Assembly: GCF_051903065.1 (NCBI RefSeq)
Contig: NZ_CP178439.1
Reading direction: 5' to 3' (one strand)
Length of the DNA stretch: 64,000 bases
Origin: Escherichia coli
GTDB taxonomy: Bacteria; Pseudomonadota; Gammaproteobacteria; Enterobacterales; Enterobacteriaceae
The notes beneath the pieces were generated by a model that saw nothing but the letters and a program-made list of their open reading frames with translations, had not been told where the DNA came from and did not search any database. The position numbers and the translations under genes were made by a program. This document shows, in pieces, positions 54,583 through 57,179 of the stretch; position 1 is the first letter of the stretch, and the number at the start of each line of letters is the position of its first letter.

Positions 54583-54805
54583 TATCTAACCTCCCTTATA
54601 ATGAAAAATGGCGCTTTACTTCTGACCAGATGCCGAAGCCTTGAATGCAGCCGGAACTGTCGTTGTTTCTACTTTACAGAAATGGAATTAAAAAGTGGTG
54701 ATGCTGTCAGCGCCAGTGATATAAGACGGTAATTCGCCATTTGGATTGTCCGCTCCACCCAACATGTTGTTTCCTTAAGGTTCTCACACCAGAAAGGACA
54801 TCAAC

Positions 54806-55978
54806 ATGCTGAGCAGAGAGGACTTTTACATGATAAAGCAAATGCGCCAGCAGGGCGCGTACATTGTCGATATTGCGACTCAGATTGGTTGCTCTGAACG
54901 GACGGTCAGACGCTACCTCAAATACCCTGAACCGCCAGCCAGAAAGACCCGCCACAAAATGGCTAAGCTGAAACCGTTTATGGATTACATCGACATGCGC
55001 CTGGCAGAGAATGTCTGGAATAGCGAGGTTATCTTCGCGGAGATTAAGGCAATGGGTTATACGGGCGGACGTTCCATGCTGCGTTACTACATCCAGCCCA
55101 AACGTAAAATGCGTCCGTCAAAAAGAACAGTTCGCTTCGAAACTCAGCCTGGATACCAGCTCCAGCACGACTGGGGCGAAGTTGAGGTGGAGGTTGCCGG
55201 GCAACGGTGCAAAGTTAACTTTGCGGTTAATACGCTGGGGTTCTCCCGCCGCTTCCATGTCTTCGCCGCACCAAAACAGGATGCTGAGCATACCTACGAA
55301 TCACTGGTTCGCGCCTTCCGCTACTTCGGTGGTTGTGTGAAAACGGTGCTGGTTGATAACCAGAAGGCTGCGGTGCTGAAGAATAACAACGGGAAAGTCG
55401 TGTTCAACTCCGGATTCCTGTTGCTGGCTGACCACTATAACTTCCTGCCACGGGCATGCCGTCCACGCAGGGCCAGAACAAAAGGTAAGGTTGAGCGGAT
55501 GGTGAAATACCTCAAGGAGAACTTCTTCGTCCGGTACCGCAGGTTCGACAGCTTCACTCATGTCAATCAACAACTGGAGCAATGGATAGCCGATGTGGCT
55601 GACAAACGGGAGCTTCGCCAGTTCAAAGAAACGCCGGAACAGCGCTTCGCGCTGGAGCAGGAACATCTGCAGCCGTTACCGGATACGGACTTTGATACCA
55701 GTTACTTCGACATCCGCCATGTGTCCTGGGACAGCTATATCGAGGTTGGTGGTAATCGTTACAGCGTTCCCGAAGCGCTGTGTGGTCAGCCGGTATCGAT
55801 ACGAATATCGCTGGATGACGAGTTGCGGATCTACAGTAATGAGAAACTGGTGGCCTCACATCGCCTCTGTTCAGTATCGTCTGGCTGGCAGACAGTGCCG
55901 GAGCATCACGCCCCGCTCTGGCAGCAGGTCAGTCAGGTGGAACATCGACCACTGAGTGCCTATGAGGAGCTGTTGTGA
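54806..55978 (+). CDS. istA: IS21-family transposase IstA
   Basis: 390-aa ORF with N-terminal helix-turn-helix ([16 protein letters not shown]) and DDE core; overlaps istB by 4 bp. Confidence 0.9.
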
Positions 55979-56775
55979 TGCATGAACTGGAAGTCCTGCT
56001 GAGTCGCCTGAAAATGGAGCATCTGAGTTATCACGTTGAAAGCCTGCTGGAACAGGCAGCTAAAAAAGAGCTGAACTACCGGGAGTTCCTGTGCATGGCG
56101 CTACAGCAGGAATGGAACGGCAGGCATCAGCGCGGTATGGAGTCCAGGCTGAAGCAGGCTCGTCTGCCGTGGGTCAAAACGCTGGAGCAGTTCGACTTTA
56201 CCTTCCAGCCGGGCATCGACCGTAAGGTTGTCCGGGAACTGGCTGGTCTGGCGTTCGTGGAGCGCAGCGAAAACGTGATCCTGCTGGGCCCTCCTGGTGT
56301 CGGAAAAACTCATCTGGCCATAGCTCTTGGCGTGAAAGCGGTGGATGCGGGACATCGGGTACTGTTTATGCCACTGGACAGACTGATCGCGACACTGATG
56401 AAAGCGAAACAGGAAAACCGGCTGGAGCGTCAGCTACAGCAACTGAGTTATGCCCGGGTGTTGATCCTGGATGAAATAGGCTATCTGCCGATGAACAGAG
56501 AGGAAGCCAGTCTGTTCTTCCGGCTACTGAACCGTCGATATGAAAAAGCGAGCATCATACTGACGTCAAACAAAGGGTTCGCAGACTGGGGAGAAATGTT
56601 CGGAGATCACGTGCTGGCAACAGCGATCCTGGATCGGCTGCTACATCACTCAACCACGCTGAATATCAAAGGAGAGAGTTACCGGTTAAAAGAGAAACGT
56701 AAAGCTGGAGTGCTGACCAAAAACACAACGCCAATCAGTGATGATGAAATGGTGGAAAGCGGACAGCATCAGTAA
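55975..56775 (+). CDS. istB: IS21-family helper ATPase IstB
   Basis: Walker [14 protein letters not shown], Walker B LILDEIGY; 266 aa. Confidence 0.9.
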
Positions 56776-56813
56776 CGAAAGTATTTAGCGGGCATGAAAA
56801 TGGCAAATAACGG

Positions 56814-57179
56814 TCAAACATCGTGGCGTTGACAATGCTGGGCACGTTTCTTTTCCAGCCGGGGTTTAAGCCAGAGCTGAAACTCATTCAACTTCTCAGC
56901 AGCCAAAACCGCTTCAACGGGGAAAACTTTATATTTACCCTGTTGCTGAGGTTCACCCAGCCATCGCCTGATGGCTCCGTCAGTCCATAAACGAGTCTCT
57001 TTTAGCCTAGTTACAGTGACCCATTTTCTGGACCATTCATCAAATTGTCGCTGGCGATCCCGATAACGTTGTTCTTCCTGCTGCCGAAGCCACTCGCGAT
57101 CAACAGCAAATTTTCGGTATCCAACAAAGAGCCCTTGTACTTTGGCCATGTCATATTCCGGTTGCTTAGAGTTACTCAT
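56814..57179 (-). CDS. Hypothetical protein, C-terminus altered by the IS21-like insertion
   Basis: The last 21 nt including the stop codon lie inside the IS right end; without the IS the ORF would end ..KRAQHHHFLIPFL. Confidence 0.5.
   Translation of the reverse strand: MSNSKQPEYDMAKVQGLFVGYRKFAVDREWLRQQEEQRYRDRQRQFDEWSRKWVTVTRLKETRLWTDGAIRRWLGEPQQQGKYKVFPVEAVLAAEKLNEFQLWLKPRLEKKRAQHCQRHDV

Follow-up and report, generated by a model that had tools for sequence, protein, structure and literature searches.

The insertion sequence IS21, from R68.45 and IncP-alpha plasmids, carries two overlapping genes, istA and istB, encoding proteins of 390 and 265 amino acids (aa) respectively, between TG...CA ends with multi-site terminal repeats; it also has an outward-facing TTGACA at its right end, an internal start at Met-9 and a 4-bp target duplication. 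The same features recur in an element which we analysed in a stretch of 64,000 nucleotides from Escherichia coli (NCBI RefSeq assembly GCF_051903065.1, contig NZ_CP178439.1), hereafter called the window, where it lies in the 3′ end of a small hypothetical gene on the backbone of an IncHI2 plasmid. Target duplications range from 4 to 8 bp across the IS21 family and measure 4 bp for IS21, whose reference copy is reportedly 2131 bp long with a duplication of this same size. The terminal TTGACA is said to act as the -35 box of a junction promoter between tandem IS21 copies.

IS100, found in Yersinia pestis and on enterobacterial plasmids, belongs to the same family and has the same two-gene layout and TGTCA...TGACA ends, but differs clearly in its length (1954 bp), in the sizes of IstA (340 aa) and IstB (260 aa) and in its 5-bp duplication (CTGAT). 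A more distant relative, from the Firmicutes, is IS5376 of Geobacillus stearothermophilus, which supplied the closest solved structures for both proteins of the window element: IstA aligns end to end with IS5376 IstA (PDB 8B4H, E 4.4e-83), and IstB aligns with 8Q3W (IS5376 IstB, E 5.3e-68) and 5BQ5. In IS5376, an IstA tetramer assembles on the element ends and IstB decamers bend the target (PMC10122671, PMC11208146), and by analogy this mechanism can be carried over to the element in the window. The published IS5376 complex has a 5-nucleotide overhang, whereas the duplications seen here are of 4 bp (PMC10122671 for the complex). Terminal repeats of the IS21 family have CA-3′ ends and repeated transposase-binding motifs, L1/L2 and R1/R2, and the IS21 cointegrase is a form of the transposase lacking the 8 N-terminal residues (PMC10122671).

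An earlier note, made from the letters of the window alone, had placed the element at 54705-56834 between two copies of ATGC, and exact re-reading reproduced all of these coordinates. The element is 2130 bp long and complete, with TG...CA ends on direct reading; it begins with TGTCAGCGCCA (in the longer reading, TGTCAGCGCCAGTG) and finishes with TGGCGTTGACA (longer reading, CGTGGCGTTGACA). The terminal 11 bp of the two ends match as an inverted repeat at 10 of 11 positions, and gapped alignment with two single-base gaps extended the imperfect repeats to about 48 bp. A motif scan found a second, L2-like copy of the terminal motif at 54747-54757, that is, positions 43-53 of the element (TGTCCGCTCCA versus TGTCAGCGCCA), and an R2-like site, TGTCCGCTTTCCA, was recognised by eye only, about 69-81 nucleotides from the right end. 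The right end carries a perfect -35 hexamer, TTGACA, facing outward at 56829-56834. The 21-mer at the left end occurs once in the window, with none expected by chance, so that the element is present as a single copy; its G + C content of 0.51-0.56 stands against 0.37-0.48 in the flanks. The features of the region and of the two other insertion sequences in the window are listed in Table 1.

Table 1. Position of the IS21 insertion, its parts, the neighbouring genes and the other insertion sequences in the window
Feature	Position	Strand	Basis or remark
Left copy of the 4-bp target-site duplication, ATGC	54701-54704		Direct reading; single ATGC in the empty site
IS21, 2130-bp isoform, complete	54705-56834	+	100% identical to copies on many plasmids named IS21 by NCBI
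Left terminal inverted repeat, TG start	54705-54753	+	Gapped alignment of both ends and motif scan
istA, DDE transposase, 390 aa	54806-55978	+	Open reading frame list; Pfam rve, Mu-transpos_C_2, helix-turn-helix
istB, AAA+ helper ATPase, 265 aa	55978-56775	+	Pfam IstB_IS21, 2.5e-90
Right terminal inverted repeat, CA as final two bases	56787-56834	+	Gapped alignment of both ends
Right copy of the 4-bp target-site duplication, ATGC	56835-56838		Direct reading; single ATGC in the empty site
Chimeric gene, small hypothetical protein WP_065311125.1, 111 aa	56814-57149	-	Last 6 codons and stop are IS21 sequence
DUF7706 gene, 63 aa, WP_000398480.1, next downstream	54391-54582	-	Pfam PF24806, 1.1e-25
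Hypothetical gene, 93 aa, WP_000077926.1, further downstream	54060-54341	-	Open reading frame list and annotation
IS903B-type element, IS5 family, 1057 bp	21358-22414		9-bp duplication ACGTATCTC at 21349-21357 and 22415-22423
IS100, IS21 family, 1954 bp	30821-32774		Interrupts a competence-protein gene of the CoiA family; 5-bp duplication CTGAT

The empty site was reconstructed from 500 bp on either side of the element, with ATGC kept once as the end of the left flank, and was searched for in PLSDB. It matched many IncHI2 plasmids with 100% identity across the full 1000 bp, and 677 records were found to have the site uninterrupted, a record being counted when a single stretch of it covered at least 80% of the query. 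Because an empty site with a single ATGC exists, the boundaries of the element and its 4-bp duplication are fixed beyond chance; the target duplication read from the flanks by the earlier note is thus proven, by the very comparison with relatives lacking the insertion that it had proposed.

The two gene products agree with this picture of a whole element. By Pfam, IstA has a helix-turn-helix at its N-terminus, then an integrase core (rve) and a C-terminal domain of the Mu-transposase type; it scores 285.8 bits with the NCBIfam model NF033546 'IS21 family transposase' (cut-off 160), while IstB scores 301.9 bits with NF038214 (cut-off 200). Candidate catalytic residues D122, D184 and E230 of IstA lie within the motifs QHDWGE, LVDNQK and KGKVER, and IstB has a Walker A motif, GPPGVGKT, at residue 104 and a Walker B motif, LILDEIG, at residue 162. 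The istA stop and istB start codons overlap as TGATG. IstA begins with MLSREDFYM, and an internal ATG at codon 9 (54830) occupies the position of the IS21 cointegrase start, which concerns the presence of the codon only. The overlap of the two genes, the matches to both NCBIfam models and to Pfam IstB_IS21, the repeat ends and the short duplication are those of an IS21-family element, and on these characters it is assigned to that family, as the name IS21-like had anticipated; with both reading frames and both ends whole, it is also intact, as had been thought. One could still suppose that the ATGC repeat is a coincidence, arising when flanks were joined by recombination between IS21 copies, or that the element is of another family. 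A chance match of 4 bp has a frequency of about 1/256, and exchange of flanks between IS21 copies does take place in sister plasmids; however, the flanks lie contiguous around one ATGC in the 677 records, by which the coincidence is already refuted, and the curated cut-offs for the IS21 family are passed. We give this idea practically no credence.

The window copy shares about 99% identity with 2131-bp copies annotated as IS21. Compared with the 2131-bp copy on pHA2-23-KPC, it differs by about two dozen substitutions and lacks one base, the deletion falling between 56784 and 56785 in the non-coding interval from the istB stop to the right repeat. Identical copies bear the NCBI label 'IS21-like element IS21 family transposase / helper ATPase IstB'. 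On this identity and these labels, the element is taken to be IS21 itself in a common isoform, and not a new element.

It is almost certain that a complete and functional IS21 entered a small, conserved hypothetical gene at its 3′ end by ordinary transposition with IstA and IstB. Following known IS21 biology, IstB would have captured the target DNA, IstA would have linked the element by its CA-3′ ends to the target, whose strands were cut with a 4-bp stagger, and repair of the gaps would have given rise to the ATGC duplication. This would have been one event in the ancestor of an IncHI2 sublineage, later inherited and spread by conjugation. As an IS21 insertion it is routine, the element has long been known, and there is nothing new in it; its importance beyond annotation is small. 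No account of the insertion itself turned up in our literature searches, which did not extend to the classic papers on IS21 or to its reviews.

The occupied site (flanks plus element, 3134 bp) was recovered in one piece from 41 PLSDB records, of which at least 36 match it with 100% identity. These records come from five genera, represented by Salmonella enterica (many from Taiwan), E. coli, Klebsiella pneumoniae, Shigella dysenteriae and Leclercia adecarboxylata. As 41 plasmids in five genera have it, the insertion was inherited and not made in the plasmid analysed here, and it is neither private nor fresh. Genomic comparison found the window to be collinear with pR18.0877_278k, an IncHI2A plasmid of S. 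Goldcoast, with 99.99% identity, except for one extra insertion, that of IS903B. The IS21 copy is located on the IncHI2 backbone just downstream of the tellurite resistance (ter) cluster and a gene for a VWA-domain protein, and upstream of a HipA-type toxin-antitoxin pair. Set against the 677 records with an empty site, the occupied site cleanly marks one sublineage among the IncHI2 resistance plasmids. In one Salmonella record (NZ_AP026949.1, 84512-89606), IS21 at the same site is apparently itself interrupted by a nested element of the IS21 family annotated as ISSen3; the matched span there is about 1.96 kb longer than the query.

The gene hit by the element is read from the minus strand. 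The open reading frame at 56814-57179 ends in KKRAQH followed by CQRHDV and a stop, the six codons and the stop being supplied by the right end of the element, in which the stop codon (56814-56816) lies 19-21 nucleotides inside. Without the element and with one ATGC, the frame ends in RAQHHHFLIPFL (also read as KKRAQHHHFLIPFL) before its stop, so that the native last 8 residues, HHFLIPFL, have been swapped for 6 encoded by the insertion sequence. The claim that the C-terminus of the neighbouring gene had been rewritten to RAQHCQRHDV therefore holds, and both peptide strings given for it were correct on direct reading. Homologues and the NCBI annotation place the start of the gene at the second Met (57149), so that the protein measures 113 aa when uninterrupted and 111 aa in the window, rather than the 123 and 121 aa of the longer frame.

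Twenty-eight homologues of this protein, typically of 113 aa, were found on enterobacterial, Xenorhabdus, Brenneria and Vibrio replicons, and all of them are annotated as hypothetical. In nearly all of 19 homologues with 41-69% identity, a motif [FY]-x-[ILVM]-x-x-[LI] occurs at or near the C-terminus, as in the tails FLIPFL, FEIPKL, FDIPTL and YMIPFL. From the 28 homologues and the retention of the motif across the 19, it follows that the interrupted gene is real and its tail conserved. Since IS21 has removed the conserved C-terminal motif, the small protein is probably impaired. An AlphaFold model of the 113-aa protein had a mean predicted local distance difference test score (pLDDT) of 85.4, with the tail past the last helix unstructured. 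No Pfam or NCBIfam family matched the protein, and Foldseek found no PDB structure that it resembles significantly (best E 0.35). Among the weak Foldseek matches, winged-helix DNA-binding domains of the MerR or excisionase type recurred (CbpM, RacA, GlnR, CarH and RdfS), which may serve as a lead only. As a family, these proteins of about 113 aa occur on large plasmids of Enterobacterales and Vibrio and have invariant G, W and Y positions.

The plasmid in the window is in this respect a ready-made tail mutant of an unnamed family of small proteins. It would be a long shot, though, to propose that the family uses its conserved, unstructured C-terminal peptide to dock onto a partner from the host or the plasmid, and that the insertion is a natural tail-swap mutant which alters plasmid behaviour in a globally spread IncHI2 sublineage.

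The 2.1-kb element now also parts the interrupted gene from two small minus-strand genes downstream, the DUF7706 gene and the 93-aa gene; the latter matched no family in Pfam or NCBIfam. If there was any co-transcription of these genes, it has probably been disrupted.

No finding speaks against the insertion of IS21 as such; several points limit other parts of this interpretation. A consensus scan of 54300-57500, including the right junction, found no promoter-like site, and any polarity on the downstream genes is hypothetical. Loss of activity is what we infer from conservation, and any cost must be small because the lineage bearing the insertion is widespread. The name IS21, moreover, rests on NCBI annotation labels.

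Two further signals at the locus were considered and rejected. A hybrid antisense promoter, formed from the outward TTGACA and the adjoining flank, had no matching -10 box in the consensus scan; read by eye, the hexamers 16-18 nucleotides past TTGACA (TTTTCC, TTTCCA and TTCCAG) are poor -10 boxes. Terminator-like hairpins on the minus strand inside IS21 numbered 2, with 3.7 expected, and are thus no more frequent than by chance.

The breadth of the insertion could be taken to mean that it was selected, with loss of the peptide or uncoupling of the two downstream genes being advantageous to the IncHI2 sublineage. The 41 occupied sites are spread over Salmonella, E. coli, Klebsiella, Shigella and Leclercia, and the lost tail is a conserved motif; but against these 41 stand 677 records with the empty site, and nothing suggests that the gene was hit repeatedly and independently. 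Resistance cargo is present in the lineage too, for example mcr-1 on pPK5074-MCR1, and hitch-hiking with such cargo explains the spread. In pR18.0877_278k the cargo includes CTX-M-55 and ramAp (PMC12054066). We regard selection as very unlikely, and retain inheritance of a single ordinary transposition event.

The same isoform was found at other positions on other plasmids. In pR21.1436_215k, an IncHI2A plasmid of S. Agona (NZ_CP093404.1, 178364-183505), an identical 2130-bp IS21 sits at a different site with ATGT flanks, and the flanks of the window's IS21 site were not found in that record; the gene at whose end this copy lies is annotated as belonging to the flavin reductase family. Of other IS21 copies, that on pSS_046 of Shigella sonnei is also 2130 bp long and has a CATG duplication, and the 2131-bp one on pHA2-23-KPC has a CTAT duplication. 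A further copy has GTGC flanks, and its flanks are exchanged with those of the native copy; an inversion is therefore implied. The duplications of all IS21 copies seen were 4 bp. BLAST matches ran 4-13 nucleotides past the IS21 ends in pSS_046, pINV and pR21.1436_215k. Shared flanks or longer true ends were rejected as the explanation for two of them, as the junctions of pSS_046 (CATG) and pR21.1436_215k (ATGT) have unrelated flanks, and the extra matched bases in these two plasmids are alignment spill-over.

A replicon fusion was found at the very site occupied in the window. The plasmid p5ASAL05_300k of S. Goldcoast strain 5ASAL05 (300,750 bp; NZ_CP090138.1, 86808-97500) is an IncHI2 plasmid fused there to a 4597-bp ColE1-like mobilisable plasmid, in the order native left flank, IS21, ColE1-like plasmid (with Rop, MbeB and MbeD) and IS21. 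The two copies are direct, and each inner junction bears one copy of the small plasmid's TTTA, which has thus been duplicated. Strain 5ASAL05 also has a free plasmid of 6727 bp (NZ_CP090140.1) that equals the small plasmid plus one IS21, and the sizes add up exactly: sister plasmids measure 294,023 bp, and 294,023 + 6,727 = 300,750. This is a textbook case of replicon fusion by IS21, with the apparent product of its resolution alongside. Judged from such sister plasmids, in which it has moved and fused replicons, the isoform is demonstrably mobile and clearly alive. The second copies, the flank exchanges and the ColE1-like fusion bear on how IncHI2 plasmids rearrange.

By the same route, the single IS21 in the window might be what remained of an IS21-made cointegrate after recombination between two copies had resolved it. 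IS21 is known for replicon fusion through its cointegrase (PMC10122671), and a sister plasmid has just such a cointegrate with an apparent resolution product. The end structure, however, is the same either way (one IS21 and a 4-bp duplication), so that the sequence does not discriminate between the two routes, and nothing in the window requires the longer path. We consider a resolved cointegrate rather unlikely and favour direct insertion by IstA and IstB.

The earlier note had counted three different, recently active insertion sequences within 35 kb of this plasmid. The three are present and intact, namely IS903B, IS100 and IS21, but 'recently active' did not stand for two of them. Like the IS21 site with its 41 records, the occupied site of IS100 is common to 80 PLSDB records, and since so many have it, the IS100 insertion too was inherited with the plasmid lineage. 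Only for IS903B was an occupied site with a 100% match lacking in PLSDB, a result that leaves aside two Citrobacter records which cover at least 86% of the query in 3-4 pieces at about 98% identity. The IS903B insertion is at the 3′ end of a 287-aa open reading frame and is not found in pR18.0877_278k. The record counts (80 for IS100, 41 for IS21 and none identical for IS903B) hint at differing ages of the three insertions, with IS903B perhaps the youngest, and the IS100 and IS903B insertions provide further lineage markers alongside that of IS21.

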